14,985 nucleotides of DNA from Candidatus Dadabacteria bacterium (GCA_040289575.1 PSLL01000001.1:166477-181461); one strand, 5' to 3'. Positions 3 through 14,984 are shown, counted from the first letter of the stretch. Numbers and translations are program-made. Notes: generated by a model not told the origin, from the letters alone.

Positions 3-512
3 CTGCGCGTTATGAATAACCCTAATCTTACAGAGGCGATTTGTGCGGATTTTTATAAGAATGAGTTTGAGGATAATTATTTTGATATTATTTTCGCCAA
101 TAATGTAGCAGAGCATATAGAGAACCCAGAGGTGTTTTTATCTGAGGTAAAGAGAATCCTTAAGCCCTCGGGGTATTTCTTCTTTAAGACCCCGAACCGA
201 TGGCACTATGTGCCTATGGTTGCGAGGGTAACCCCTTACTGGTTCCATGTGCTTTATTGTTGGCTACGAGGCAGGGCGACCGAAGATACCTTTCCTACAT
301 ATTACCGAATGAATTCTTACAGTACTGTTAGGAAGCTAAGTGAGCTTTTAAACTTTGATTTTGAAATCAGGATGTTTGAGGCACGTCCCGAGTACTTGAT
401 TTTCGATCCAATAACCTTCCTGATAGGGGTGGGCTATGAGAGACTGGTAAATAGATTTAAATTCCTTAATAGGTTTAGAGTCGTGATGATGGTGAAAGTA
501 AGGTTTAGGTAA
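3..512 (+). CDS. Class I SAM-dependent methyltransferase (Methyltransf_11-like), 5'-truncated by the window edge
   Basis: Frame is open upstream of ATG 12 to the window edge (CTG CGC GTT ATG). Contains FDIIFANNVAEHIENP and EVKRILKPSGYFFFKTPN, the typical post-motif-I methyltransferase segments. The glycine-rich motif I is absent, consistent with truncation. Confidence 0.85.
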   Translation: MRVMNNPNLTEAICADFYKNEFEDNYFDIIFANNVAEHIENPEVFLSEVKRILKPSGYFFFKTPNRWHYVPMVARVTPYWFHVLYCWLRGRATEDTFPTYYRMNSYSTVRKLSELLNFDFEIRMFEARPEYLIFDPITFLIGVGYERLVNRFKFLNRFRVVMMVKVRFR

Positions 513-518
513 AAATAC

Positions 519-1649
519 ATGGATAAGAATTTTAAGAAAAAAGGCGTACTTATACTTATAGACACACTGGAGTCGGCGGGGGCTGAAAATGTTGCAGTAA
601 ATATCGCTACTCAACTGAAGGACTCTGATGAGTTCAGACCAGTAGTTTGTTCTACTAGATGGGGTGGAGTTTTAGAGGAGGTATTAAGAGGTAATAATAT
701 AAGATATATACTACTCAAGCGGAGACGATCATACGAGGCTTATAGGTTTTTCTCTTTAAGGAAAATCATCGGTGAGGAAAACATACAGATAATTCATGCT
801 CATAAATTGGGGTCAAATCTCTGGGGTGCCCTATTTGGGAGACTTTATAATATCCCTGTAATTGCCCATTGTCATGCTCAAACCTATAGCTGGAGTAGTT
901 TATTGGCCGACAAAATAATTGAGAAACTATCTTATACAATAGTAAGTATTTCGGAGTATGAAAGACGCAGGTTGATAAAAGAAGAAAGGATTTCGCCTTC
1001 TAATATAGTAACAATCTATAATGGGATTGAATCTTATAATTATAAGACCAAACCTAATTTAGATATAAAAAGACAACTGGGTATAAGGATGGACTCACCG
1101 GTTGTAGGTATTATTGCTGTGTTTAGACCACAGAAGAATCATGAGTTATTTCTACAGGCTGCTCAAGAGGTTCTAAAACGGAATAAAAACATCTGTTTTC
1201 TCCTAGTAGGTGATGGACCCACAAGGAAGAGGGTAGAGGAGCTGGCAGCGAAATTGGGAATCGCAAAGAGTTGTGTCTTTACAGGCTCTAGAAAGGACAT
1301 TCCCGATATCCTTTCGATAATTGATATTGGCGTGCTTTCTTCGCATTGGGAGGGATTACCTTTGGCTGTGCTTGAGTATATGGCATCATCTAAACCTATT
1401 GTTGCCACAGGGGTAGGGGGGGTTCCGGAGGCGATTCAAGACGGAATAAACGGTTTTTTGGTTCCGGCTGGTGATTTCAAGATGATGGCACAGAGGATTA
1501 ATCTCTTAATTGACAATAGGGAGTTGGCTCTAGAAATGGGAAGAAAAGGGCTCTTAATCTTGAGAAGAGATTTTACGTTGGATTCTATGATGAGGAAAAT
1601 CGAGGACTTGTATACCTATGTTCTTAGATTTAAAGAATCTCCCCATTGA
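519..1649 (+). CDS. Glycosyltransferase family 4 (GT-B fold)
   Basis: 376 aa. N-terminal DTLESAGAE, IIHAH, TIYNGI, FRPQKNH, LVGDGP and the GT4 E-x7-E motif SSHWEGLPLAVLEYMA, followed by PIVATGVGGVPEAIQDGINGFLV. Confidence 0.93.
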   Translation: MDKNFKKKGVLILIDTLESAGAENVAVNIATQLKDSDEFRPVVCSTRWGGVLEEVLRGNNIRYILLKRRRSYEAYRFFSLRKIIGEENIQIIHAHKLGSNLWGALFGRLYNIPVIAHCHAQTYSWSSLLADKIIEKLSYTIVSISEYERRRLIKEERISPSNIVTIYNGIESYNYKTKPNLDIKRQLGIRMDSPVVGIIAVFRPQKNHELFLQAAQEVLKRNKNICFLLVGDGPTRKRVEELAAKLGIAKSCVFTGSRKDIPDILSIIDIGVLSSHWEGLPLAVLEYMASSKPIVATGVGGVPEAIQDGINGFLVPAGDFKMMAQRINLLIDNRELALEMGRKGLLILRRDFTLDSMMRKIEDLYTYVLRFKESPH

Positions 1650-1655
1650 AGTGGG

Positions 1656-1695
1656 ATGTACTTTCTAATCGATTCATTAATTCTAGAGAGTACAT
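1656..1695 (+). other. Intergenic stem-loop (12-bp stem with one G.U pair)
   Basis: ATGTACTTTCTA (1656-1667) pairs with TAGAGAGTACAT (1684-1695) around a 16-nt loop. It is immediately followed by the SD-like AAGGGGG of the next gene. Confidence 0.55.
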
Positions 1696-1713
1696 AAGGG
1701 GGATAGAAACTAA

Positions 1714-2805
1714 GTGGTGCTTTTGATTGGTGCTTACCCCCCTCCTTATGGGGGTAACTCAATTCATATTCAGAGACTCCATCAGTTATGCAAGGTTAAG
1801 GGTATGGATTGTGTTGTACTAAATCCTTATAGAAGTCCCTCTAATCTTGATGAGGAAGGTGTATTTAAATTTAGAGGTAACGCTGTATTTAGGATATTAA
1901 ATCTGATAATTAGCCTTAGGAGATTCAGCATGGTCCGATACCGAATAGTACACATTCATGTTACAGCACTAGAGAAATTCCGATACGTGGGAATACCAAT
2001 CCTTCTTGTTTGCCGTAGCTTCAAAAAGGTCTTGACGATTCATGGAGGAGACTTTATCGAAGTATATGGAAAAAGTAATTTCTTAAGAAGAAGACTGATC
2101 CGATACCTGGTTAGTAAATTTGACAAGATTATAACGGTTAATAATAAACAGAAGGAACTCCTCATCGCTAAGTTTGGAATCGCGCCTCAGAAGATAATAA
2201 TGATTCCTGCATTTCTACCTCCTTTGCCTGATGGAAATTTTACACTCTCTGAGAATACTGATCTAATTGTTGAAGTCACAAAATTAAAGTCTAAATTTGA
2301 CAAGCTGGGTCTGGTAGCGGGCTATATTCTTCCAATTTATGGGTTTCACGATGTATTAGATGCCCTTATTTCAGTCAGGAAACTGGGAGTAAAGTTAGGT
2401 TTAATCTTCGTATTTTATACGGAATCGGACAGAAAATACGAATCTCAACTAATCGAGAGGGTAAATGAAATCCCTGGTGTTTTGATCTTAAGGGATATAA
2501 AACCCGAGGCTTTTATTGAGGTGCTAAGGTATTGTGATGTATTCATTAGACCCACTTATCTAGATGGGGATTCTATTGCCCTTCGAGAGGCTATATATTT
2601 AGGAAAGCAGGTCATAGCCAGTGATTGTGTTGAGCGTCCGGATGGGTGTGTTTTATTCAAATTAGGAGACCCAGATGATTTGGCGAGGAAATTAGTTGAT
2701 GTAGCGCGTGATAAGAATTTGGGAATAGTCTCGAATGTAATGGTAGAGAATGGCGAAAGAATTTTAAATGTTTATAAAGAGCTTTCTGGAGAGTCTTGGA
2801 AGTGA
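1714..2805 (+). CDS. Glycosyltransferase family 4 (GT-B fold)
   Basis: 363 aa, GTG start preceded by an in-frame TAA and SD-like AAGGGGGA. Motifs GAYPPPYGGNSIH, IVHIH, TIHGG and FIRPTYLDGDSIALREA (D-x7-E variant of the GT4 motif). Confidence 0.9.
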   Translation: MVLLIGAYPPPYGGNSIHIQRLHQLCKVKGMDCVVLNPYRSPSNLDEEGVFKFRGNAVFRILNLIISLRRFSMVRYRIVHIHVTALEKFRYVGIPILLVCRSFKKVLTIHGGDFIEVYGKSNFLRRRLIRYLVSKFDKIITVNNKQKELLIAKFGIAPQKIIMIPAFLPPLPDGNFTLSENTDLIVEVTKLKSKFDKLGLVAGYILPIYGFHDVLDALISVRKLGVKLGLIFVFYTESDRKYESQLIERVNEIPGVLILRDIKPEAFIEVLRYCDVFIRPTYLDGDSIALREAIYLGKQVIASDCVERPDGCVLFKLGDPDDLARKLVDVARDKNLGIVSNVMVENGERILNVYKELSGESWK

Positions 2806-4978
2806 AACAAGTTATACAGAACTTAAAAGACGGTAAATTAGAGGTAGAAGAAATTCCTATTCCCGCCCTCCGTTCCGGTGGTGTGCTGGTTAAGAACGTG
2901 TGTTCTTTGGTAAGTGCTGGAACGGAGCGAATGCTGACCGAAATCGCAAAAAAAAGCCTTATAGGCAAGGCAAAGGAAAGGCCGGATTTAGTAAGACAGG
3001 TTATAGATAAGGTCAGAACCGATGGGTTAGTTACAACTATTCAAAAGGTTTTAAACCGCCTTGATGCTCCTATACCTCTTGGCTACAGCTCTTCAGGAGT
3101 AGTTGTAGCGGTTGGAGATGAGGTGAGAGAAAAATTTAAAATAGGAGACAGAGTAGCATGTGGGGGGAGTGGATATGCGAATCATGCAGACTATGTTTTT
3201 ATTCCCAAGAATCTTTGTGTTAAGATTCCTGAGGGGGTTGACTTCGAGAGCGCGGCATTTACGACCTTAGGTGCTATAGCCCTTCAAGGAGTAAGACAGG
3301 CTGATATAAGAATTGGAGAGATAGTAGCTGTTATAGGTCTGGGCTTAATTGGTCAGCTTACAGTTCAGATATTAAAAGCATCTGGATGTAGGGTTATAGG
3401 ATTCGATATAAATCCTGAAAGGGAAAATCTCGCCACTGAACTCGGAGTGGATATCATGAGATTTTCAATTTTAAGAAACAGACTGAGCTATTCTCTAGAG
3501 GAACTGGTGTAGATGCAGTGATAATAACAGCCTCGACTAAGAGCAGTGGGCCTGTAAGGCTTGCAGGAGAGGTAGCACGTGTGAGGGGCAGAGTCGTAAT
3601 AGTTGGAGATGTTAGAATAGATATTCCGAGAAAACTCTATTACGAGAAAGAACTCGATATTAGACTTTCTATGTCTTATGGCCCGGGTAGATATGATCCA
3701 TCGTATGAAGAAAAGGGAATTGATTACCCACTTCCCTATGTGCGCTGGACTGAAAAGAGGAATATGGAGGCTTTTTTAGACCTTATTAAAGAGAGAAATT
3801 TGGATGTTAAGCCTCTGATAACACATCGTTTTTCTATAGAGGACGCAAAAAGAGCCTATGAGCTCATTTCCGGAGAGAAAAAAGAACCCTACCTTGCAAT
3901 TTTATTGAATTATAATAATGATAATGAATCACAATCAGTGGATGTGGAAAAGATTTTCCTAAAGAAAGGTATCAATTCTTCTACTTCTGTTTCTGACCCA
4001 AAATGTATAGGATTTATTGGAGCCGGAGACTTTGCAAAGGGCGTTTTACTGCCGACTCTGAAGAATATTGGTGATCTGAGATTAAAGGGGATAGCGACGG
4101 CTACTGGCATGACGTCAAGGCACGCTGGAGAGAGGTTTGGATTTGAATACTGTACATCCGACTATAAAGAGATTATCAATGACCCAGAGATTGGTTGTGT
4201 GTTTATTGTCACTCGACATGACCTACATGCCAAGATTGCATCCGAGGCTTTAGAAAGCGGAAAGCATGTGTTCTTAGAAAAACCTCTTGCCCTTGGTGAA
4301 GAGGAACTTAGAGAATTGATTAAATCTAAGGAAAGGTCTCAGGGAAGCCTTATGGTTGGTTTTAATCGCCGATTTTCTTCTTTTTCTAAAGAAGCAAAGG
4401 CATTATTTGCGAAGAGGGTAAACCCGCTTATTGTAAACTACCGTGTTAATGCCGGTTTTATACCTAAGACTCACTGGAGCCAAGATATAAGAGAAGGGGG
4501 GGGGAGAATTATAGGTGAGATATGTCATTTTGTAGACCTTATACAATTTTTGATTGGAAGTCCGCCTGTAAGGGTATATGCCGAGGGTATATCACCTAGA
4601 ACCGATGACGTCTTAATATCGGATAACTTAGTTGTATGTATTAAGTTCGAAGATGGGTCAGTAGGCAACGTTACATACTCTGCCTTGGGAAGTAAAAGGA
4701 TTTCTAAGGAAAGAATAGAAATCTTTGGTGATAATTCAGTTCTTGTTATTGATGACTTTCGAGGTTCAGAGTGGGTGGGGAACAATAAGATAAAAAAGAA
4801 AAGAAAGTGGCTTGGACAGGATAAGGGACATAAAGCGGAAGTTAGAGCCTTTATTCAGGCCTTGCTTGAGAAGCAGCCATTGCCAATAGATTTTGGTGAA
4901 GCCATTATTACTACACTTACAACCTTTAAGATAGTCGAATCTCTTTATAAGGGTATGCCAGTCAATATATGTCCTTAA
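2802..4978 (+). pseudogene. Bi-domain oxidoreductase (N-terminal MDR/Zn-ADH-like + C-terminal Gfo/Idh/MocA), interrupted by a -1 frameshift at about 3452-3490 (real lesion or sequence error)
   Basis: Likely start is GTG 2802 (GTGA overlap with the upstream stop, GGAGAG SD), giving MKQVIQN. The first ORF has GYSSSGVV, GDRVACGG and GLGLIGQ. The frame of ORF 3518 is open from 3440 and reads EIFNFKKQTELFSRGTGVDAVIITAST, continuing the MDR domain. The C-terminal domain has GFIGAGDFAKGVLLP, EKPL, GFNRRF and GGGRIIGE. Joined length is about 725 aa. Confidence 0.85.
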
Positions 4979-5000
4979 ATTAAAATAAATCAAAGTTATG

Positions 5001-5014
5001 GTGATAAGTATCAC
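5001..5014. promoter_or_regulatory. Palindromic putative operator GTGATA-AG-TATCAC (CRP/FNR-like GTGA-N6-TCAC core)
   Basis: Perfect 6-2-6 inverted repeat in a 56-bp AT-rich intergenic gap, ending 6 nt before the AGGAG SD (5021-5025) of the amidotransferase. Confidence 0.4.
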
Positions 5015-5034
5015 TAATTTAGGAGCGCAATTAA

Positions 5035-6978
5035 ATGTGCGGTATTGCCGGCGTTGTAAATTGGGGCAATAGCGAGGTGCTTGATCGTATGACAGACATT
5101 CAGGCTCACCGGGGCCCGGATGATGCAGGTTTGTGGGAACATCTCTTTCCCGATGGTACATATGTAGGTCTAGGCTCGCGGCGACTCGCTATTCTTGATC
5201 TCTCTTCTAGTGGGCATATGCCAATGACAAACGAAGATGGGACTATCTGGATCACTTATAACGGTGAGATTTATAACTTTTCCGAACTCCGTCAAGAGCT
5301 TGTGGCTAAAGGACACACCTTTCGTTCTAATACTGATACAGAAGTTATCGTTCATCTTTACGAAGAGGAGGGAACAGAGTGCGTCAGACGTCTAAACGGC
5401 ATGTTCGCCTTCGCAATTTGCGATCTCCGTTCCTCAACGTTATTTCTTGCCCGGGATCACTTCGGTATCAAGCCTTTATATTACGCGCATCGGGGTCGCC
5501 GCTTTGCCTTTGCTTCTGAGGTCAAGGGATTACTTGAGTTGCCAGAAATTCGGGCTGAATTAGACCTGGAGGCTCTGCATCAATACATGACATTCCTTTG
5601 GGTTCCAGATCCACAGACGATGTTTCGAGATATATATAAATTGCCGGCCGGTCACTACGCCGTTTTCAAGGATGGTAATCTGCGCCTTGTCCAATACTGG
5701 AATCTGACTTTCCCACCGGACAGCGCCGATTACACATACACTGAGGCTGAACTCGTAGAGGAAATTCGAGAGCGAATCTCCTGCTCCATTCGAGCCCAGA
5801 TGATAAGCGATGTCCCTCTTGGTGCCTTCCTCAGCGCTGGCTTAGATTCCAGCAGTATCGTGGCTATTATGGCTCAGGCTGCCAGTGAACCGGTTCGAAC
5901 ATACACTATTGCCTTTCCGTCGAATTATCGAATCGGTGAGACAACACTGGACGACTCTGGTGTAGCTTCTCGAACAGCTCGGCAATTCGGCTGCGATCAT
6001 CACGAAATCGTCGTTGAACCAAAGGTAGCTGAGTTGATTCCAAAGTTGGTATGGCATATGGACGAACCTACAGCCGATCCAGCAATTATTACTGCCTACC
6101 TGGTCTGTCAGGAGGCCCGTCGAACAGTGACAGTTCTTCTATCAGGTGTTGGTGGTGACGAACTATTTGCTGGCTATCGTAAGTACTACGCCTACTACTG
6201 GGCTCAGGTCTATAAGCGACTTCCGGGACCGCTACGTCAGTTTTTCATTGAACCTGTTGTCTTAGGTCTTCCTTCACTGCGGGGAACGTCCTTTAAAGGT
6301 ATGGTGCGTCTAGCTAAAAAGATGGTTCGCAGCGCGTCTCTGTTGCCTCAGGATGCTTTTCTTATGAACTGTACTTATCTTGATGAAACCCAGAAAACTC
6401 GCCTTTACTCATCGGATTTGAGAACAAGACTAAATGGAAAAGACCCTTGGCAGAAGCATAGAGCCTATTTCGACCATGTAAATCACGCCGACTTCCTCAA
6501 TCAGATGCTCTATTTAGATATCAAAACCTTTATGGTTAGTCTAAGCCTAACCTATAATGACAAGATGAGTATGGCTTCATCTGTTGAGGTAAGGGTACCT
6601 TTCTTGAACCGGGAATTGGCGGAATTTGTTGCCTGGAATGTACCGCCGCATTTGAAATTAAATGGCTTTCTGCGTCCGACGACTAAATACATCTTTCGCA
6701 AAGCGATGCAGGGCATCTTACCAGATGAGGTCTTGCGCCAGCCTAAGGCTGGGTTTGGGGCACCGGTTGACCACTGGCTGGCCTATGATCTAAGGGAGAT
6801 GGTAGACGATTTGCTTTCGGAAGACCGGATTCAAAGGCGTGGCTATTTTCAACCCGGTGCTGTACGCCAAATGATTGAAGAACACCGTAGCGGCCGCCAG
6901 GACTGGTCTATGCAAATCTGGCAACTGCTTACTCTAGAAATCTGGTTAGAGACATTCATAGCTGTAGGGAACTCTTGA
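5035..6978 (+). CDS. asnB: Asparagine synthase (glutamine-hydrolysing) family Ntn amidotransferase; in this context probably a polysaccharide uronamide-forming amidotransferase
   Basis: 647 aa. N-terminal nucleophile MCGIAG, HRGPDD, YNGEIYN, ARDHFGIKPLYY, PP-loop FLSAGLDSS, SGVGGDELFAGY and SVEVRVPFL. AGGAG SD at 5021. Confidence 0.95.
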   Translation: MCGIAGVVNWGNSEVLDRMTDIQAHRGPDDAGLWEHLFPDGTYVGLGSRRLAILDLSSSGHMPMTNEDGTIWITYNGEIYNFSELRQELVAKGHTFRSNTDTEVIVHLYEEEGTECVRRLNGMFAFAICDLRSSTLFLARDHFGIKPLYYAHRGRRFAFASEVKGLLELPEIRAELDLEALHQYMTFLWVPDPQTMFRDIYKLPAGHYAVFKDGNLRLVQYWNLTFPPDSADYTYTEAELVEEIRERISCSIRAQMISDVPLGAFLSAGLDSSSIVAIMAQAASEPVRTYTIAFPSNYRIGETTLDDSGVASRTARQFGCDHHEIVVEPKVAELIPKLVWHMDEPTADPAIITAYLVCQEARRTVTVLLSGVGGDELFAGYRKYYAYYWAQVYKRLPGPLRQFFIEPVVLGLPSLRGTSFKGMVRLAKKMVRSASLLPQDAFLMNCTYLDETQKTRLYSSDLRTRLNGKDPWQKHRAYFDHVNHADFLNQMLYLDIKTFMVSLSLTYNDKMSMASSVEVRVPFLNRELAEFVAWNVPPHLKLNGFLRPTTKYIFRKAMQGILPDEVLRQPKAGFGAPVDHWLAYDLREMVDDLLSEDRIQRRGYFQPGAVRQMIEEHRSGRQDWSMQIWQLLTLEIWLETFIAVGNS

Positions 6979-8435
6979 GAAAACGAAGATTTATTCTCGT
7001 AATAGTCATAGCAGTCTTGGTCAGAGCGGGATTTATGTTGTGGTCTTGGTCTGGTCATTACTATGCAATTCCGAATGCAACATTGGTTGCGTCATACCTT
7101 AAGGATGGTTATTCAATCGCTGCTGGATATGGTTACACTACGGCTGATGTAGATACACCTGCTGAGAGATACTTAGACCATTTGTATGAACGCGTCAATT
7201 CAGAAAATATTCGCTTGACTCCCGAGATGGCGGGCTCTTTACCGGCGGAAGGTGCTCGCCCACAAATGTTGCATCCACCAGGAATGGCAGTTTTAGTTGC
7301 GGGTATTAACCGTTTTCTTGGTATACGTGCTGATGAACCGCTTCAATTTATAGGTATTTTATTTGATTCAATTGCAGCGGTTCTTGTTTACTGGGTTGTT
7401 GGTAATTTCTTGGGCGAAAAGGTCGGTTTTGTCGTAGGCTTAGTCTATGCTCTATTTTTTCCACTCGCATGGGCGTCTGTTTCCAAGACACCTGAAGGAC
7501 TGCTTAGTTTATTTATCGTAGCGAGCCTAGTGTCCATAATGCAAGCTAGTCGTTCTCAAAACCCATGGTTATGGTATGTGACATGTGGTCTTATTATAGG
7601 AATTGGAAGCTATATGCGCCCGGATTATATATTTATGCCCTTATTTATGGTTCTTGGTCTATGGGCATATACACGTCATCTTATCCATTCAATAAAAGCA
7701 ATGATCCTAGCTCAATTTGTAGTTTTACTAGTACTTCTTCCCTGGGCATATCGTAATCACACGTTATGCGGTCGGTGGATATTTACCTCAACTAGTGTGG
7801 GAGGTACACTGATTAGTGGACTCGGTGAGTTCAGTAACGCCTGGGGAATTGGTGGTCTAGATGAGGATCGGGCTAGAGAAGCTGCCGCTCAAGGGCTAGC
7901 GACACCTTGGGATTCTGATGCCGATTTGTATTTCAGGGGTATGTTCTGGCAACGTGTCCGACAGAATCCTCGTGCCTATATATTGACTGTAATTAAGCGT
8001 CTACCTTTGGCTTTGGCAACGCCTTATGGATTTGGATATTCTAATCCCTATAGAGTACGCAGTTTCACTCAAATTATGCAGCAATCTGGAGAGGATAGGT
8101 ATCAAATCATCAAAACTCATCCGTTGTATGTTCTTATGGCGTACTGGGATTACATGGCCATGAGTGGCTTTACCCTGTGCTGTGTAGTCTGTGTTGTAGT
8201 TTTCTCTATCAAGGAACGATACCGATGGGGTCTTGTATTGTTGTTGGTTTGTCCACATCTTTACTCAATTATGTCTCATCTCCTAACACATCTGGAGCCT
8301 AGGTTCCTCTTACCGAGCGTGTTCTGTTGGCTAATTGGATTTGGCTATGTTTTAGTTCGGGGCTGGCGCAATCTCAACTTGATAGACATTAATCAATTTC
8401 CCAAAGTAAGTTTCAATTCGAAGATGTATATTTGA
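6975..8435 (+). CDS. Polytopic membrane protein, GT-C-fold (ArnT/PMT_2, GT39/83-like) glycosyltransferase
   Basis: 486 aa, TTG start overlapping the asnB stop (TTGA) with AGGGA SD. Many hydrophobic segments plus HPPG, TPEGL, YMRP, LPWAYRN and C-terminal EPRFLLP, the pattern seen in ArnT/PMT-like proteins. Confidence 0.65.
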   Translation: MRKRRFILVIVIAVLVRAGFMLWSWSGHYYAIPNATLVASYLKDGYSIAAGYGYTTADVDTPAERYLDHLYERVNSENIRLTPEMAGSLPAEGARPQMLHPPGMAVLVAGINRFLGIRADEPLQFIGILFDSIAAVLVYWVVGNFLGEKVGFVVGLVYALFFPLAWASVSKTPEGLLSLFIVASLVSIMQASRSQNPWLWYVTCGLIIGIGSYMRPDYIFMPLFMVLGLWAYTRHLIHSIKAMILAQFVVLLVLLPWAYRNHTLCGRWIFTSTSVGGTLISGLGEFSNAWGIGGLDEDRAREAAAQGLATPWDSDADLYFRGMFWQRVRQNPRAYILTVIKRLPLALATPYGFGYSNPYRVRSFTQIMQQSGEDRYQIIKTHPLYVLMAYWDYMAMSGFTLCCVVCVVVFSIKERYRWGLVLLLVCPHLYSIMSHLLTHLEPRFLLPSVFCWLIGFGYVLVRGWRNLNLIDINQFPKVSFNSKMYI

Positions 8436-8606
8436 AAGTTAATGAATATAAGCCTAAAGTTTTATTCATCTTCTGATTTACAAACTATTGTTAACAAAGA
8501 TTCTAACCAAAGTCCGATTGATTATTAACAATAAAAACACAGATTATTTATTAAATATAAATCTTCACTAATTACTATTTTAAGAGGATTAGTAGAGATA
8601 CAAGTA

Positions 8607-10439
8607 ATGTTTAGGTTATCTCTTTATTTACATACATTGAGATTTACAAGAAAAAGCCAGATTCTATACTACATACGCTTTTTATTCCTATATAGGCTTT
8701 ATAGAGTATTTGGAGGCTATATAGAGTGGCTACTTAAAGGTCTTGTTCCGCCTGATATACGAGTTAGGAGTAATCTATTTCTCTCTCTAAAAAAAACCTT
8801 GCTTTTAGAGAGTGAAAACTCGGAAGAGATTTGCAAGTCTGCGGAAAATATAAGTAGAAGACAGTTTCTATTTTTGAATATTGAGAGAAATTACGGACAG
8901 GAGGTAGCTTGGGATGACAAAGAAATGAGTAAGCTCTGGAGATATAAACTCCATTATTTTGATTATGGGATGTATTTTGCTCAAGCCTATTTTTATACAG
9001 GTTATGAAAAATATTATTTAAGTTTTAAAGATATCATTGAGGAATGGATAAAGGCTAATCCTTTCGGACAAGGAGATGGTTGGGAACCTTACCCTTTATC
9101 ATTGAGGGTGGTGAACTGGATAAAAAACTATATATTCTTCAAAGACTTAATAAAAGCGGATTCAGAATTTCAGAGTCTATTTCTGAAAGAACTCTATCTA
9201 CAAACCCTCTTTCTTGAAAAGAATCTTGAGTTTCACCTCTATGGAAACCACCTTATAAAAAATATAAAAGCCTTAATATTTTCAGGAATATTCTTTGAAA
9301 ATAAGTATGCTGATAGGTGGAGAAAGAGGGGTATAAGAATGCTTCAAGAAGAGCTCAAAGAACAGATTCTTTCAGATGGGGGGCATTTTGAGAGAAGCCC
9401 CATGTATCATAAGATAGTTCTTCAAGACCTTCTGGAGATTTATGCATTCCTGAATGATTATGATGGAGATCAAGATCTCAGTTGGTTAGGGGAAAGAATC
9501 CATTCTATGTATCTCTTCTTGGAAGGGATTCTACATCTGGATGGAGAAATACCTCTTTTTAATGATTCTACTTTAGATGAGGCACTAAAAGCTGGGGTTT
9601 TGTCTCGTATTTATAATGCCCTCTTTCACCAAACGGTGACCATAAGGGAAGATGGATTAAATATTAAGGGATTTAAGGAAAGCGGTTATTTCGTTATTCA
9701 GGATAACAAAGGCTCTAAAGCTATCATAGACTGTGGACGAATTGGCCCGGACTATATCCCAGGGCATGCGCATTGTGATACATTGAGTTATGAGTTATCT
9801 CTTAATGGAAAGAGGTTCATTGTTGATACGGGGGTTTACGAATATACGATTGGAGAAAAAAGACATTACTGTAGAAGCACACGGGCTCATAATACCGTAG
9901 TGGTTGACGCACAAGACCAATCCAAGATTTGGGCGAGTTTTCGAGTAGCCCAAAGGGCATATCCAATATATGGAAAAGTAGAAAAGATAGACGGCTTTTG
10001 TTACTTTGAAGGGGCCCATGATGGCTATAGGAGGATTGGTGTTACTCATCGGAGAAAGACTTGGTTCGAACAGTCTAGAAGCTGGATAGTATTGGATGAA
10101 CTTGAAGGAAAGGGTATACACAATCTAGAGAGCTTTATCCATTTTCATCCGTCGGTTAAGGCAAGATTAGAGGGAAAAGAGGTAAATATCGGATTCGAAT
10201 CTGAGGAATTTAGATTGGTACCAATTGGAGAATCCAGGATTGATGTAATAAAAACCCCTTATTTCCCGGAGTTTGGCAGACACAAAGAGAGATTTTCCAT
10301 CAGGCTTTTAGCTGAAAGGGCTAATCTTCCTTATAGATTCGGATACGCTATATTCCCGGATATTAAAGGAAAGGTCTATTTAGAGAGAGCAAAGATAATA
10401 GTCGAAGTCGATAGTGATAAAAGGGTCGTTTTGCAATGA
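8607..10439 (+). CDS. Heparinase II/III-family protein
   Basis: 610 aa. WEPYPLSLRVVNW, LEFHLYGNHLIKN, EQILSDGGHFERSPMYH, GHAHCDTLSYELSL, DTGVYEY and RSTRAHNTV are characteristic of heparinase II/III-like proteins in polysaccharide clusters. Confidence 0.9.
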   Translation: MFRLSLYLHTLRFTRKSQILYYIRFLFLYRLYRVFGGYIEWLLKGLVPPDIRVRSNLFLSLKKTLLLESENSEEICKSAENISRRQFLFLNIERNYGQEVAWDDKEMSKLWRYKLHYFDYGMYFAQAYFYTGYEKYYLSFKDIIEEWIKANPFGQGDGWEPYPLSLRVVNWIKNYIFFKDLIKADSEFQSLFLKELYLQTLFLEKNLEFHLYGNHLIKNIKALIFSGIFFENKYADRWRKRGIRMLQEELKEQILSDGGHFERSPMYHKIVLQDLLEIYAFLNDYDGDQDLSWLGERIHSMYLFLEGILHLDGEIPLFNDSTLDEALKAGVLSRIYNALFHQTVTIREDGLNIKGFKESGYFVIQDNKGSKAIIDCGRIGPDYIPGHAHCDTLSYELSLNGKRFIVDTGVYEYTIGEKRHYCRSTRAHNTVVVDAQDQSKIWASFRVAQRAYPIYGKVEKIDGFCYFEGAHDGYRRIGVTHRRKTWFEQSRSWIVLDELEGKGIHNLESFIHFHPSVKARLEGKEVNIGFESEEFRLVPIGESRIDVIKTPYFPEFGRHKERFSIRLLAERANLPYRFGYAIFPDIKGKVYLERAKIIVEVDSDKRVVLQ

Positions 10440-11680
10440 AGGTACTTTACGTATCCCAATACTTCCCACCTGAGATGGGGGCCCCTTCTGCGAGAGTCCA
10501 TGAGCTTTCAAAGTACTGGGTAAGACTTGGACACGAAGTAACGGTTCTTACGGGTTTTCCAAACCATCCTACTGGAGAAGTCCCAACAGAGTACAAAAAA
10601 AAGATGAAAAAATTAGTGATTTCTGAGGAAGTCGATGGGATAAAAGTTATAAGAACATGGCTTTATCCGATTCCCAATAGAAAAGCTTATGAAAGAATTC
10701 TAAATTATGGTTCCTTTTTTATCTCGGCTGCTATAGCGGGTTCTTTTATAAAAAAGCCTGATGTAATTATAGCCACTTCTCCCCCACTTCTTGTTGGACT
10801 GTCTGGCTATTGGGTAAGCCTTATAAAAGGAGTTCCCTTTGTTTTTGAAGTAAGGGATCTCTGGCCAGAAAGTGTAGCAGCAACAGAGATGTTAAAAAGG
10901 GATTCTATATCAATCCGATTACTGGACAATATAGCTTCATTCCTTTATAGAAAGTGTAATAAGATAGCAGTTGTTACCGAAGCGATTAGAGATAATCTGA
11001 TTCGCAATAGAGGTATCCAATCTCATAAAATTATGGTTGTTGAAAATGGTGTTGAAACGAATTTATTCAGCCCCTATTTCCATAGAAATGTAATAAAAGG
11101 GCAACTTGGTCTAGAGAGAAAGTTTATTGTCTCTTACATAGGTACAATTGGTGTTTCTCATGCCCTAGAGGTTGTTCTTGAGGTTGCCAAGGTATTAAAG
11201 AATAAAATAGAGAATCTCATTTTTCTCATTGTTGGAGAGGGTGCCGAAAAAGAGAGATTAATTAGAATAAAAGAAGAACAAAAACTAAGTAATGTTGTAT
11301 TTTTTGATAAACAGCCCAAAGAGAGAGTGCCACTTTTCATAAATGCCTCGGATGTTTGCCTCGTGTTGCTTAAGAAAACGGAGATTTTTAAAACAGTTCT
11401 CCCATCCAAAATGCTCGAATTTATGTCCTGTGGCAGGCCTATTATACTCGGAGTTGATGGGCAAGCAAAAAAGATTCTAGAAGAGGCAAATTGTGGGATA
11501 TACGTTGAGCCCGAGAACATTGAGGCTTTATCTAGGTTAATTTGTAGGTTTTATGAGAATTCTCTTTTGAGAAAGGAGCTAGGAGATAATGGAAGAGATT
11601 ACATACTCAAACGGTTTTCTAGGGAGAAAAAGGCCTCCGAATATCTCAATCTACTGGAGGATTTAGTACAAAATGGATAA
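10436..11680 (+). CDS. Glycosyltransferase family 4, WbuB-like
   Basis: 414 aa, ATGA overlap with the upstream gene. SQYFPPEMGAPSAR, VLTGFPNHPTG, IIATSPPL, EVRDLWPES and PSKMLEFMSCGRPII match the WbuB-like GT4 subgroup. Confidence 0.9.
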   Translation: MKVLYVSQYFPPEMGAPSARVHELSKYWVRLGHEVTVLTGFPNHPTGEVPTEYKKKMKKLVISEEVDGIKVIRTWLYPIPNRKAYERILNYGSFFISAAIAGSFIKKPDVIIATSPPLLVGLSGYWVSLIKGVPFVFEVRDLWPESVAATEMLKRDSISIRLLDNIASFLYRKCNKIAVVTEAIRDNLIRNRGIQSHKIMVVENGVETNLFSPYFHRNVIKGQLGLERKFIVSYIGTIGVSHALEVVLEVAKVLKNKIENLIFLIVGEGAEKERLIRIKEEQKLSNVVFFDKQPKERVPLFINASDVCLVLLKKTEIFKTVLPSKMLEFMSCGRPIILGVDGQAKKILEEANCGIYVEPENIEALSRLICRFYENSLLRKELGDNGRDYILKRFSREKKASEYLNLLEDLVQNG

Positions 11681-13703
11681 ATTGAAAGTCCTAACAGTTG
11701 TTGGTGCTCGCCCTAACTTTATGAAGGCGGCTCCAATAGTTAGTGAGATGAAAAAGCGCTCGAATTTAGAACCATTACTCCTTCATACAGGGCAGCACTA
11801 TGATGATGAAATGTCTAAAGTATTCTTTTCCGATCTTAAGCTCCCTAAACCAGATGCTTATCTTGGTGTAGGTGGAGGGAGTCATGCAGAGCAGATTGCA
11901 AAAACTATGATAGGGGTTGAAAGTTTTCTCAAACAGGTGCAACCCCACTTAGTGGTATTGGTGGGGGATGTCAACTCAACTCTGGCATGTGCTATAGTGG
12001 CTTCTAAAATGCATATCCCTATAGCCCATGTGGAAGCAGGGTTGCGAAGCTTTGATAGAACTATGCCCGAAGAGATAAATCGAATCGCAACAGATGCGCT
12101 TTCGGATCTGCTTTTTATAACAGAAAAAAGTGCCTATAAGAACTTAAAAAGGGAAGGAATACCAAATGAAAAGATATTCTTCGTAGGTAACGTCATGATA
12201 GATACCCTCTATGCCTTTGTCGAAGAGGCAAGAAAAAGGCCTACATTAGATGAGCTAGGCTTAACGAGGAAAGAATACGCAGTTCTTACCCTCCATCGCC
12301 CAAGCAATGTAGATATAAAAGAGAATTTATATCAAATAATAAATGCTATAGAAGAGATCCAAAAAAGGATTAAGATCGTCTTTCCTGTTCACCCTAGGAC
12401 ATTATTTAGACTCAAGGAATTTGGATTGGAGGAAAGGGGAAAGAGGCTGGGAAATCTACTACTAACTGAACCTTTGGGTTACCTGGATTTTATTAACTTA
12501 ATATCTAATTCTAAATTGATTCTTACAGACTCCGGCGGTGTTCAGGAGGAGGCTACAGTTTTGCAAATACCATGTCTCACTTTAAGAGAAAATACTGAGA
12601 GACCGATTACGACAACAAAGGGTACTAATATAATAGTGGGAACAGACCATGAAAAAATTATTACCGAGGGTATAAGAGCCTTAAATGGAAAGGTCAAAAA
12701 TGGCAGAGTACCTAAACTATGGGATGGTGAGGCATCGAAGAGAATAGTTGAGGTATTAGAAAGATGGAGCGCCATGAATAAATATATAAGAATAAAACCA
12801 TTAAGCATGAGGGTTCCGGTGTCAAAAGAGCCATCATACAAACGCATATTTGACATTCTTTTATCAACTCTGGGGCTTATCGTCTCACTGCCGGTCTGGG
12901 TGATTTGCACTATTGCTATTTGGTTGGAGGATAGGGGACCGATCTTTTTCAAAGATACTAGGGTCGGAAAGGGTGGAAGGCTATTTACTGCCTTTAAGTT
13001 CCGATCTATGCGTCCGGACGCCGAAAAAGAGATTATGTCTCTTCAGGCAAAAGAGGATGATCCGCGTATAACGAAGGTAGGTAGAGTCCTGCGTGCAACG
13101 GCTTTAGATGAACTTCCTCAGTTGCTGAATATAATAAAAGGGGATATGAGTTTTGTCGGACCGAGGGCTTTAAAGCCTATAGAAATCGAATTGGACTCTA
13201 AATACGAATACGGAAGAATAGAAGAAGTTCCTAATTATTCACTTCGTACATCCATCCGTCCCGGACTAACAGGAATTGCCCAGATCTATGCCCCTAGAGA
13301 TATAAATAGAAGAAACAAGTTTCGCTATGACGCTATATATGTCAAGAACATGGGCTTCTTGCTGGATATAAAACTGATTCTTCTGTCATTTTGGATTACA
13401 TTTGCAGGAAGGTGGGAAATTAGAGGAGATAAGCTCAGTCCTGTATTGGCAAAGAAACAGACCAAAAAAATAAATTTAGAGAAAGAGAAACCCATAGTGG
13501 AGAAGAAGCTCATTGGCCAAATCCTTTTAGAGGCACGTATTATAAACGAGGAGCAATTAAAGGAAGCTCTGGAATATCAGAAAATAAGTGGGGGCAAAAT
13601 TGGGGAAAATTTGATCAAGAAGAGTTACATTTCTGAGTCGGTACTAAAACGCTTTTTAGAGAAGCAATTGGTAATAAACGGAGGACAGTATCAATCTCTG
13701 TAG
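11673..13703 (+). CDS. wecB: Fusion protein: non-hydrolysing UDP-N-acetylhexosamine 2-epimerase (WecB/WbpI family) + monotopic phosphoglycosyl transferase (Bac_transf) + MshEN-like domain
   Basis: 676 aa, single uninterrupted ORF. aa 1-365 epimerase (VGARPNFMK, HTGQHYD, GDVNST, HVEAGLRS, MPEEINR, TDSGGVQEE, RENTERP, WDGEASKRI). aa ~390-580 PGT (KRIFD, KFRSM, DDPRIT, LDELPQL, GDMSFVGPR, RPGLTG). aa 613-665 tandem 24-5-24 MshEN-type motif. The symbol refers to the N-terminal domain only. Confidence 0.9.
   Translation: MDKLKVLTVVGARPNFMKAAPIVSEMKKRSNLEPLLLHTGQHYDDEMSKVFFSDLKLPKPDAYLGVGGGSHAEQIAKTMIGVESFLKQVQPHLVVLVGDVNSTLACAIVASKMHIPIAHVEAGLRSFDRTMPEEINRIATDALSDLLFITEKSAYKNLKREGIPNEKIFFVGNVMIDTLYAFVEEARKRPTLDELGLTRKEYAVLTLHRPSNVDIKENLYQIINAIEEIQKRIKIVFPVHPRTLFRLKEFGLEERGKRLGNLLLTEPLGYLDFINLISNSKLILTDSGGVQEEATVLQIPCLTLRENTERPITTTKGTNIIVGTDHEKIITEGIRALNGKVKNGRVPKLWDGEASKRIVEVLERWSAMNKYIRIKPLSMRVPVSKEPSYKRIFDILLSTLGLIVSLPVWVICTIAIWLEDRGPIFFKDTRVGKGGRLFTAFKFRSMRPDAEKEIMSLQAKEDDPRITKVGRVLRATALDELPQLLNIIKGDMSFVGPRALKPIEIELDSKYEYGRIEEVPNYSLRTSIRPGLTGIAQIYAPRDINRRNKFRYDAIYVKNMGFLLDIKLILLSFWITFAGRWEIRGDKLSPVLAKKQTKKINLEKEKPIVEKKLIGQILLEARIINEEQLKEALEYQKISGGKIGENLIKKSYISESVLKRFLEKQLVINGGQYQSL
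13509..13667 (+). other. MshEN-like tandem c-di-GMP-binding motif coding region
   Basis: LIGQILLEARIINEEQLKEALEYQ-KISGG-KIGENLIKKSYISESVLKRFLEKQ: two 24-aa copies of RLGxxLLxxGLIxxxxLxxxLxxQ separated by exactly 5 aa. Confidence 0.82.
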
Positions 13704-13778
13704 GGGCTTCGGTTGTTTAGAGGTTTTTTAAAGCTTGTGCTCGAAAGATAAGAGGTAATTTAACAACATGTATATAAT

Positions 13779-13810
13779 ACCAACATAGAGGTAGCTACCT
13801 CTATGTTGGT
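13779..13810. terminator. 32-bp perfect palindrome; probable bidirectional terminator or 3'-end hairpin between convergent genes
   Basis: ACCAACATAGAGGTAGCTACCTCTATGTTGGT equals its own reverse complement. It lies between stops at 13703 (+) and 13845 (-). Flanks are AT-rich but lack a clean poly-U tract. Confidence 0.6.
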
Positions 13811-13844
13811 TCAATTATTAATTACCTCCAGTTTGCCTGCTGTC

Positions 13845-14984
13845 TTAGGGGAATTCATAAGCCCCTATATCGCAAATCCCCTCTTGTGGTCTGGGCTGAT
13901 TGTCAAGGTCAAAAGTAGAGCACTGGTTATTATTTCCCCTATTTCTGGCAGGAGATCCGCTCTGGATGTGGTAATCACCGCCGTATAGGTTTACAAAAAG
14001 TGGATTGGCGAGTATTCCATTGGTGTCCCAGCCGGTCAAAGACTTATACTGGGCATTAAAATCGCTCTGATAATTCCCATTATAGATCCACGGGGTTTTG
14101 CTGGAAACGTACCATAGATTATTGTTAAGTATACTGGCGGCAGCTGATGTGCCATCTCGAACAATTATAGTATAGACAGGGATTGTGCGGTTATACCAAG
14201 GTACATTATATGAAGATTGCGCGGCATAGAAGATGTTGTTATACACCTGGTTCTGAGGATTAGTAGCTGTTGCATATTGAATTTGCAGTAGTGAGGCATA
14301 TTCACCATATGGGCTTGGAGCCGTGGGTGTAGGGATGCCAGTAAGTACTACGGTGTTATTTCTATATCTGTTACCGAGATAGGCCTTGGAGATTTCCCAA
14401 CCCCCGTACTGGTTATTAACGAGTAGGTTATTCTCAATTAGCGTATTGCTCTCAACCTGTGTGCAACTATTCCCACCCCAGATATGCATGCCAAATCCGT
14501 GATGGTCGTGAATATAGTTACGCCTTACTGTTACACTCTTCATTGTACAGCTTGAATCGCTTGTGTCGCCTCCCAGGTACATTCCATGACAGAACTTGTG
14601 ATAGACAGGACACCCCTTTGGTATAAGGCCGTTGCTATCTATTTCGTTGTCCACTATGTAAATGTCACTGCCGTATGCAAAACTGATACCATCGGCTAGG
14701 TTATGGTGTATATGGTTATTCCTTATAGTAATATTATTGCTGTATAGACCCCTTATACCCCACCAGCCGCATCCCCTTATCTCAAATCCATCAATTATCC
14801 ACCAATTGCTATAGAAAAGTGCGATACCATTTTGATTTATGGCAGGGGTAGGGTTTGCGCTCTGCCAACCACCGTTGGTGCAATCTATAATTGGGGTGTG
14901 ACCCGGATAGGCTATTAGTGTAATCGGACTTTGCTGAGTTCCACTCTTCCAGCCGAGGTTTGCAACTGGATTGTTTGAGAGGTT
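13845..14984 (-). CDS. Right-handed parallel beta-helix (pectin-lyase-like) protein with C-terminal choice-of-anchor-Q-like tail, 5'-truncated
   Basis: The frame has no stop from 14654 to the window edge, adding 110 codons (..WKSGTQQSPITLIAYPGHTPIID..WWIIDGFEIRG..NNITIRNNHIHHN..). Asn-ladder repeats include VRRNYIHD, IENNLLVNN, YRNNTVV and VYNNIFY. The C-terminus reads ANPLFVN..DYHIQSGSPARNRG..DLDNQPRPQ..CDIGAYEF. At least 379 aa. Confidence 0.85.
   Translation of the reverse strand, partial: NLSNNPVANLGWKSGTQQSPITLIAYPGHTPIIDCTNGGWQSANPTPAINQNGIALFYSNWWIIDGFEIRGCGWWGIRGLYSNNITIRNNHIHHNLADGISFAYGSDIYIVDNEIDSNGLIPKGCPVYHKFCHGMYLGGDTSDSSCTMKSVTVRRNYIHDHHGFGMHIWGGNSCTQVESNTLIENNLLVNNQYGGWEISKAYLGNRYRNNTVVLTGIPTPTAPSPYGEYASLLQIQYATATNPQNQVYNNIFYAAQSSYNVPWYNRTIPVYTIIVRDGTSAAASILNNNLWYVSSKTPWIYNGNYQSDFNAQYKSLTGWDTNGILANPLFVNLYGGDYHIQSGSPARNRGNNNQCSTFDLDNQPRPQEGICDIGAYEFP

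Follow-up and report, generated by a model that had tools for sequence, protein, structure and literature searches.

A candidate cyclic di-GMP-gated phosphoglycosyl transferase family and its epimerase-fused member in Candidatus Dadabacteria

The fusion gene and its reading frame

The window analysed here is a stretch of 14,985 nucleotides from a Candidatus Dadabacteria bacterium (GCA_040289575.1 PSLL01000001.1:166477-181461), and its subject is a single gene whose product (the window protein) joins a WecB-type epimerase, a small monotopic phosphoglycosyl transferase (PGT; monoPGT for the monotopic kind) and an MshEN_N module of the cyclic di-GMP (c-di-GMP)-binding type. The main new point is that proteins joining PGT and MshEN_N form a family so far unannotated, to which the epimerase is a late addition. 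The features of the open reading frame (ORF) are listed below with amino acid (aa) positions in the encoded protein; models were made with AlphaFold2 (AF2), and local confidence is given as the predicted local distance difference test (pLDDT).

11673..13703, + strand: three-domain ORF (WecB + small monoPGT + MshEN_N), ATG start, 676 codons
11682..12761, + strand: WecB-type non-hydrolysing UDP-N-acetylglucosamine (UDP-GlcNAc) 2-epimerase domain (aa 4-363), TIGR00236
12762..12836, + strand: epimerase-PGT junction linker (aa 364-388); contig X4 is identical over 12613-12859
12837..12932, + strand: predicted helix-break-helix (re-entrant membrane helix), aa 389-420, from the AF2 model
12840..13403, + strand: Bac_transf / PglC-like PGT catalytic domain (aa 390-577), from Pfam (197 bits) and Foldseek
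13107..13112, + strand: Asp479-Glu480 catalytic dyad (ALDELPQ), in conserved PGT columns
13437..13484, + strand: predicted helix linking the PGT to MshEN_N (aa 589-604; H210-225 of P0122), block pLDDT 64-71, lower confidence
13509..13580, + strand: MshEN motif I (aa 613-636: LIGQILLEARIINEEQLKEALEYQ), in which position 1 is Leu and the turn Gly is replaced by Arg
13596..13667, + strand: MshEN motif II (aa 642-665: KIGENLIKKSYISESVLKRFLEKQ), after the 5-residue spacer KISGG, with Ser for the turn Gly

An earlier reading made from the DNA alone (the sequence-only reading) had described an uninterrupted 676-aa ORF, and the translation of 11673..13703 agrees, giving one ATG-started frame whose single stop ends it. 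Chance is excluded for the three domains because their matches within this ORF have E-values of 1.9e-109, 2.2e-58 and 6.5e-17. Two homologues, P0002 (94% identity) and P0003 (83%), are likewise 676 aa long and contain all three parts with the same junctions; their junction linkers have diverged, yet remain in frame with no stop or frameshift.

Public assemblies, in the form of contigs and not raw reads, were aligned to positions 11400-13900. Short contigs from an independent sample (X4) are identical to the window across both domain junctions, and a 9.6-kb contig from another study with another habitat label (X5) carries the whole ORF in one piece at about 93% identity. X5 differs from 11400-13900 by 176 substitutions, and within the ORF it shows a single indel, at 12805 in the epimerase-PGT linker, where 3 nt are missing and the frame is kept. 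The third codon position is affected in 27 of the 32 in-ORF substitutions listed, and a further 133 in-ORF substitutions fall outside that listing. A separate observation tells against an intact frame: in the X3 assembly (depth 18) the A6 run at 12361-12366, in the epimerase part, is one A short, which would cause a frameshift at codon 230; X3 is flagged as a possible source sample. This 1-nt deletion is absent from three other assemblies and may be an assembly error or may reflect slippage or a real frameshift variant.

These data bear on whether the frame could stem from mis-assembly or from a lost stop, with no single protein being made. The division of the genome assembly into 126 contigs and the X3 deletion would allow such an artefact. 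Against this stand the two diverged full-length homologues, which come from other data sets, the X4 and X5 contigs, which cross the junctions without a frameshift and whose listed substitutions are mostly at third positions, and the two junction linkers, which vary between homologues and keep the frame. An artefact or pseudogene is already largely refuted and is given hardly any weight; as the sequence-only reading had proposed, the frame is unbroken between the domains, and the fusion is genuine, an artefact being very unlikely.

The epimerase and phosphoglycosyl transferase domains

The N-terminal domain is assigned by sequence to the WecB family. It matches the wecB equivalog model TIGR00236 of NCBIfam with 352.8 bits against a cut-off of 210, over profile positions 1-363 of 366, and Pfam Epimerase_2 over aa 25-363 with 366 bits. 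Its closest stand-alone homologues share 57-65% identity with it, and one close homologue is labelled by its source as a UDP-2,3-diacetamido-2,3-dideoxy-glucuronate 2-epimerase.

The middle domain is classed as a member of the small monotopic PGT family by its profile, its catalytic dyad and its predicted fold. Foldseek searches with the PGT part of the model return PglC (8g1n, E 2.9e-13) and WbaP (8t53, E 6e-10). The Asp-Glu dyad, whose role in PGTs is described in PMC10186338, had been noted as intact in LDELPQ; it lies at aa 479-480, and each of its two columns is at least 90% conserved in an alignment of 55 PGT sequences. The KFR, GPR and PGLTG blocks are also intact, with invariant K, F, R, G and P columns. 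Ahead of them the AF2 model places two helices, residues 10-25 and 27-41 in the numbering of P0122, at pLDDT 96-98 with a conserved Pro at the break, and P28, K11, R12 and D15 are at least 90% conserved in the 55-sequence alignment. By analogy with PglC this helix-break-helix is predicted to be re-entrant, which would leave both termini in the cytoplasm. The model of aa 380-676, covering PGT and MshEN_N together, has a pLDDT of 90.9 and a predicted template-modelling score (pTM) of 0.74.

The MshEN_N module

The third domain is assigned to the MshEN_N family on the grounds of its profile match, motif layout and predicted fold, with the turn glycines of that family replaced. The NCBIfam model NF053729 (cyclic di-GMP-binding domain, MshE-related) matches aa 614-665 at 61.1 bits (cut-off 38), covering profile positions 2-53 of 53, and gives 67 bits in a six-frame search of the genome. 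When aa 601-676 are searched by sequence against the Protein Data Bank (PDB), the matches are PilF (3.5e-11) and MshE of Vibrio cholerae (VcMshE, 6.7e-8); with a profile of 11 family members these become 1.4e-24 and 3.3e-16. The AF2 model of the C-terminal 76 aa, built from a family alignment, is a four-helix bundle with an overall pLDDT of 87.6 (helices 14-20, 26-39, 43-49 and 55-68; 92-98 within the bundle). The top 13 Foldseek matches to this model are all MshE or PilF GSPII domains, and c-di-GMP-bound V. cholerae MshE (5htl_B) superposes with a root-mean-square deviation (rmsd) of 0.6 A over 56 columns (TMq 0.72). The C-terminal profile and structural match foreseen by the sequence-only reading was thus obtained.

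The module consists of two 24-residue motifs separated by a 5-residue spacer (L613-Q636, KISGG, K642-Q665) and aligns without gaps to VcMshE residues 7-63. G11, L25, L29, Q32, G40, L54, L58 and Q61 of VcMshE are kept, while R38 is changed to Lys, L10 and L39 to Ile, and R9 to Leu. The two motif-final Gln are Gln636 and Gln665 here, and in PilF their replacement by Glu abolishes binding. Measured against the motif consensus (PMC5013675 and PMC11731258), the contact residues are L/I/G at the opening of motif I and K/I/G at that of motif II, and both LxxxLxxQ tails are present. The Leu at position 1 of motif I is not considered damaging because it fits the extended consensus (R/K/L)LG reported in PMC11731258, where a hydrophobic first residue is linked to nanomolar affinity in PilF GSPII-B. 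According to the same source, PilF GSPII-C binds despite a Pro at the first motif position.

Several points weigh against a functional c-di-GMP sensor at this place in the protein. The Pfam MshEN model PF05157, which describes the whole T2SSE_N domain and does match other proteins of the same genome, is unmatched in the fusion ORF at E <= 1; therefore only the four-helix N-terminal subdomain MshEN_N is present and MshEN_C is absent. Of the three domains named in the sequence-only reading, Epimerase_2 and Bac_transf stand as described, and the third holds at aa 613-665, the NF053729 envelope, as MshEN_N and not as the complete PF05157 domain. MshEN_C provides one ligand contact in MshE and PilF. 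Its absence is not disqualifying, because the isolated MshEN_N of VcMshE is reported to bind c-di-GMP at 0.35 uM (PMC5013675). The second point concerns the glycine at the helix turn (motif position 10; G18 and G47 of VcMshE), which is replaced by Arg622 and Ser651 here, by R/R in P0002 and by C/R in P0003. The relaxed motif [GAS] given in PMC5013675 permits Ser, not Arg, at this position, and in VcMshE the change of a turn Gly to Leu or Ile considerably weakens binding, according to the same paper. A near-consensus domain can also fail to bind, as reported for PilF GSPII-A (PMC12002112). The structural evidence has its own limits: the Foldseek E-values for the 76-aa model are all at least 0.011, above 0.001; AF2 may echo a fold learned from 5HTL; and the position of MshEN_N relative to the PGT is not fixed by the model, in which the linker has a pLDDT of 64-71. 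A complex prediction of PGT (aa 380-591), MshEN_N (aa 609-676) and c-di-GMP, run without controls, returned a score of 0.00 and counts neither for nor against the reading.

The PGT-MshEN_N family

The distribution of the architecture was surveyed with a profile search of a 5.8-billion-protein collection, after which 123 proteins (117 of the 120 listed and 6 others) were scanned with a local MshEN_N profile. MshEN_N is present in 41 of these 123, which represent at least 38 two-domain and at least 3 three-domain clusters at 90% identity. Among the two-domain proteins, 28 carry two tandem MshEN_N copies and 10 carry one, some of the latter being cut by contig ends. Where their sources name them, members are called 'sugar transferase' or receive a general glycosyltransferase label, and NCBI organism labels place two of them in Thermodesulfobacteriota and Deltaproteobacteria metagenome-assembled genomes.

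The three-domain form is rare. A length-matched search gave 2 full-length relatives among the best 120 of 8000 proteins scored, and among the best 150 representatives of the PGT part none has the epimerase and 2 have a clear MshEN_N. Sixteen of these 150, plain PGT relatives, were scanned and are often fused to a family 4 glycosyltransferase (GT4), VanZ, Wzy_C or a second PGT. A scan of contigs with P0122 found generic PGTs only, mostly from Firmicutes, that align over residues ~1-233 and never over the MshEN part, and the matches listed in the ESM Atlas include no Epimerase_2+Bac_transf cluster.

Closer to the window, 6 of the 41 nearest genomes contain two-domain PGT+MshEN_N genes, and the epimerase occurs in relatives as a separate gene (54-59% identity). 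In the 6 relatives the PGT+MshEN_N gene sits beside genes for Wzy_C, GT4, family 2 glycosyltransferase (GT2), aminotransferase, carbamoyltransferase or polysaccharide co-polymerase (PCP) kinase. A family member, confirmed with the local profile, was found in 14 of the 120 genomes of the phylum that were examined; two of these carriers have one MshEN_N copy, 11 have two tandem copies, and one, the window's own, has the three-domain form. The carriers belong to two taxonomic families, making up 5 of 15 genomes in one (own genome included) and 9 of 33 in the other. By this query the fusion is missing from the two other genomes of the genus to which the window belongs. In a quick tree the three-domain proteins form one clade (SH-aLRT 97) beside the single-copy forms (support 85). 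This fits the joining of an epimerase gene to an already existing PGT+MshEN_N gene, which would make the window protein's type, with 3 clusters, a rare and recent derivative.

Another PGT layout was seen in a 452-aa protein at L113:167-1525 (+ strand; G012) and in protein P0174, with two weak MshEN-like half-motifs at aa 18-45 and 63-88 and the PGT at aa 253-444. P0174 has a Pfam VanZ domain in its middle, at aa 115-216.

Conservation was tabulated over the 69 MshEN_N copies of the 41 proteins, in VcMshE numbering, as follows.

G11, L25, Q32, G40, Q61: invariant in the 69 copies
Position 38: K/R in 69/69
Position 9: Leu in 63/69
G18: Gly in 28/28 first copies, not fixed in the others, and R/R/C in the three-domain proteins
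G47: Gly in 61/69; S/R/R in the three-domain clade

This pattern, drawn from sequence comparison, indicates selection on the MshEN_N contact residues of the family. Position 18 is also N, E, K or D in second copies and in single-copy relatives, and loss of both turn glycines is confined to the three-domain proteins. The replacement of both makes c-di-GMP binding less sure in the window protein than in the rest of the family.

The same table can be read in another way, in which the bundle descends from MshEN_N and no longer binds a nucleotide in the three-domain lineage. It would then serve as a structural or protein-contact module, docking to a Wzx/Wzy component or to a cyclase, or would be on its way to loss. 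Such a history would account for the confinement of the double loss to one clade when Gly18 is kept in every first copy of the two-copy forms and Gly47 in most copies overall, and it would agree with the weakened VcMshE variants described above, with the non-binding homologue XpsE (PMC5013675) and with PilF GSPII-A, which is reported still not to bind after its motif was restored (PMC12002112). It sits less well with the retention of the direct contacts (the Leu/Ile cluster, both Gln, G11, G40 and K/R38) across the 17% divergence of P0001-P0003, with an NF053729 score well above its cut-off, and with a modelled bundle that is confidently predicted and lies close to ligand-bound MshE. Position 18 may moreover be tolerant, because N, E, K and D are seen there in other copies. 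A bundle that has lost its ligand is therefore judged rather unlikely. It is far less probable that the bundle binds another cyclic dinucleotide, for example 3'3'-cyclic GMP-AMP (cGAMP); weak cGAMP binding by VcMshEN is reported (PMC5013675), whereas the motif residues here are those of c-di-GMP binders and the genome contains GGDEF genes. Binding of c-di-GMP by the window protein is held to be moderately probable.

The gene cluster and the donor sugar

The fusion gene is preceded on the same strand by genes that belong with it.

3..10439, + strand: remaining polysaccharide-cluster genes of the window, all running in the same direction
10436..11680, + strand: WcaI-like GT4 glycosyltransferase; its end and the beginning of the fusion ORF share 8 nt

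The WcaI-like gene and the fusion ORF are assigned to the same operon, and the overlap suggests that they are coupled. The remainder of the cluster within the window encodes a methyltransferase, two GT4 enzymes, an alcohol dehydrogenase (ADH)-like piece with a GFO/IDH/MocA oxidoreductase, an AsnB-like amidotransferase, a PMT_2-like membrane protein and a heparinase II/III-like protein. Farther upstream on the contig are a MOP flippase (NF007773, 291 bits against 273), a Wzy_C protein, GT2 genes and a nucleotide-sugar dehydrogenase whose best matches are UDP-N-acetylmannosamine (UDP-ManNAc) dehydrogenases, below their cut-offs. On this gene content the locus is classified as a Wzx/Wzy-type polysaccharide cluster with the fusion gene as its last member.

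The WecB domain would be expected to make a 2-epimerised UDP-N-acetyl-hexosamine at the membrane. This product may be the PGT's own donor, or it may be the precursor of a later sugar of the ManNAc type or its uronic acid (ManNAcA), reached through oxidation and amidation. Under the first of these the substrate would be channelled from the WecB domain to the PGT, and the first unit placed on the lipid carrier would be a sugar-1-phosphate of the ManNAc type. The two activities do share one chain, bifunctional monoPGTs are a recognised class (PMC10942596), and PGT fusions with enzymes of the same pathway are common, with a GT4 partner in 7 of the 16 closest PGT homologues scanned. The fusion partners among those 16 are, however, mostly next-step transferases and not donor-making enzymes, and in relatives the PGT+MshEN_N gene occurs without an adjacent or fused WecB. 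The cluster dehydrogenase (288.7 and 269.3 bits to the UDP-ManNAc dehydrogenase models) and the AsnB-like amidotransferase together point to a later ManNAcA-type sugar, and because both genes are in the cluster, this role is at least as likely as channelling. No characterised monoPGT is known to use UDP-ManNAc. The proposal of the sequence-only reading that the fused epimerase supplies the donor is accordingly no better supported than the later-sugar alternative, and channelling is regarded as a minority possibility.

Cyclic di-GMP machinery of the genome

The genome from which the window derives (3.06 Mb, 126 contigs, 95% complete) was searched for GGDEF, EAL, PilZ and NF053729. It contains 7 GGDEF matches, 6 NF053729 matches and one short EAL fragment, and at 95% completeness no PilZ match was found. 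MshEN-type modules may thus be the main c-di-GMP receptors in this organism, since GGDEF genes are present and PilZ was not found.

MshEN-type modules were also seen in a PilB-like ATPase (C40), a 200-aa stand-alone MshEN protein (C90) and a protein combining DUF4388, DnaJ and TPR (C82). At L104:5008-8205 (+ strand, contig C112) lies a gene for a 1065-aa Wzc-like protein (Wzz, GNVR and a tyrosine-autokinase ATPase), whose C-terminal DUF4388 region gives a weak MshEN_N-like match at aa 834-892; the match scores 38.6 bits with NF053729, just above the cut-off, and 25.9 bits with the family profile. The gene is preceded by an outer-membrane polysaccharide export (OPX) gene with Poly_export and SLBB domains at L104:3971-4987; the OPX and Wzc-like pair lies on a different contig from the window. 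The EpsG tyrosine-kinase model TIGR03029 aligns weakly, over positions 5-57, to the window MshEN_N. Judged from sequence, a second Wzx/Wzy-type export component may also possess a c-di-GMP-type module.

Comparison with known systems

The nearest functional likeness is to Escherichia coli NfrB, a polysaccharide membrane enzyme with a C-terminal MshEN-type domain and a functional link to WecB. The sequence-only reading stated that NfrB needs c-di-GMP and WecB, and PMC8669469 bears this out, naming c-di-GMP binding and the WecB product. NfrB is, however, a processive GT2 synthase of a synthase-dependent system, whereas the window protein has a PGT that would prime the lipid carrier in a Wzx/Wzy-type cluster, and WecB is a separate protein in E. 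coli and fused here. The window protein does not belong to the NfrB family, because Pfam finds no GT2 domain in the fusion ORF and the NfrB model NF008411, whose cut-off is 1170, reaches 18.3 bits and aligns to the MshEN part only (aa 611-667).

The module itself resembles those of VcMshE and of Thermus thermophilus PilF GSPII-B/C (5HTL, 8PDK) in its two 24-residue motifs, 5-residue spacer and four-helix bundle, with an rmsd of 0.6-1.1 A and 33-41% identity, and it shares with PilF GSPII-B a Leu or Lys at the first motif position. In MshE and PilF the domain is N-terminal on a secretion or pilus ATPase and includes MshEN_C; here MshEN_N stands alone at the C-terminus of a PGT and has non-Gly residues at both helix turns. 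The PGT shares with PglC-type monoPGTs and bifunctional PGTs (Bi-PGTs) the Bac_transf fold, the Asp-Glu dyad and the N-terminal helix-break-helix. Enzyme domains fused N- or C-terminally to monoPGTs are a recognised class (PMC10942596), and the verified partners in Bi-PGTs are enzymes, unlike a second-messenger receptor. The sequence-only reading knew of no characterised protein with this architecture, and none was found: no paper located by the literature searches, judged in part by title or abstract, ties MshEN or c-di-GMP directly to a PGT, although the fusion may already have been listed in domain-architecture surveys.

Control at the initiating PGT of Wzx/Wzy-type pathways has precedents in the phosphorylated response regulator EpsW acting on EpsZ in Myxococcus xanthus and in the tyrosine phosphorylation of CapM by CapB in Staphylococcus aureus (PMC12802240). 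These employ a separate response regulator or kinase, whereas the ligand-binding domain here lies within the PGT chain. BcsA-PilZ, Alg44, PelD and PgaCD offer the parallel of second-messenger control of exopolysaccharide at the first polymer-committing enzyme. As had been stated beforehand, the c-di-GMP-activated polysaccharide systems are of the synthase type (PMC12802240), and these four differ further from the window protein in their receptor folds. A similar order of parts, with a sugar-pathway domain, a PGT and a small regulatory domain, is found in cyanobacterial Alg14 + Bac_transf + STAS proteins, where the flanking domains are different ones. Those proteins, of about 712 aa, form two ESM Atlas clusters (62 and 54 members) with a score of 0.83, below the 0.9 trust level, and are noted as a lead only.

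Proposed mechanism

From the observed ORF, domains, fold, contact-residue conservation, family, genomic contexts and c-di-GMP synthesis genes, we infer a mechanism that stays conditional in four respects: whether the ligand binds, whether binding is coupled allosterically to the PGT, in which direction control runs, and which sugar is donated. [quoted passage not shown] Its helix-break-helix would anchor it in the membrane and keep both ends cytoplasmic; since both PGT termini would then be cytoplasmic, the epimerase and the sensor would lie on the correct side. The 53-residue MshEN_N four-helix bundle would be joined to the PGT C-terminus through a short helix. On binding c-di-GMP made by the organism's GGDEF cyclases, the bundle would alter the conformation of the PGT's C-terminal segment. 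MshEN_N is well placed for this, because the 19 C-terminal residues of PglC turn back to lie next to the NDP-sugar site and are important for activity (PMC10186338). This would switch the priming of the lipid carrier, and the analogy with NfrB and BcsA makes activation the likeliest direction. The arrangement suggests that c-di-GMP switches polysaccharide synthesis at its first step, and the complete picture of a trifunctional inner-membrane protein with c-di-GMP-gated priming is put at about an even chance.

A wider proposal is advanced more tentatively and with somewhat less assurance. PGT+MshEN_N proteins could be the first direct c-di-GMP receptors at Wzx/Wzy initiation. MshEN_N modules would be the main receptors of the messenger in this lineage and, placed on both the priming enzyme and the Wzc-like co-polymerase kinase, could let it gate carrier commitment and chain export together. 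Little is understood of how Wzx/Wzy-dependent polysaccharide pathways are controlled after translation. Known control at the PGT step is confined to CapM tyrosine phosphorylation and the EpsW-EpsZ interaction in the account of a 2025 study, which describes c-di-GMP control for synthase-dependent systems (PMC12802240). If the proposal is true, second-messenger control would reach the step that commits the scarce lipid carrier, and the window protein would in addition tie precursor epimerisation to the gated step. The single-copy, double-copy and epimerase-fused forms of the family are ready test objects, and the natural Gly to Arg or Ser variants offer a probe of how much change the MshEN motif tolerates.

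Other features of the locus

Two features lie downstream of the fusion gene.

13779..13810, no strand assigned: 14-bp perfect hairpin between convergent genes, fold -22.2 kcal/mol, z -5.6
13845-14984, - strand: right-handed beta-helix protein with a 'choice-of-anchor Q' domain, the convergent downstream gene

The hairpin is a possible bidirectional terminator, although it has no T-run, and a terminator scan over 13600-13900 called none. Logan contigs of three runs end exactly at the hairpin. The beta-helix protein may be secreted, may bind or cleave glycans, and in that case may be connected with the cluster.

Within the upstream cluster, 2796-3512 encodes a 238-aa ADH_N / ADH_zinc_N piece, and after a gap of 5 nt comes a 486-aa ORF (3518-4978) whose GFO/IDH/MocA domain does not begin until aa 164. 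The pair resembles a two-domain dehydrogenase that is split by a stop or frameshift, or else the result of a mis-called start.

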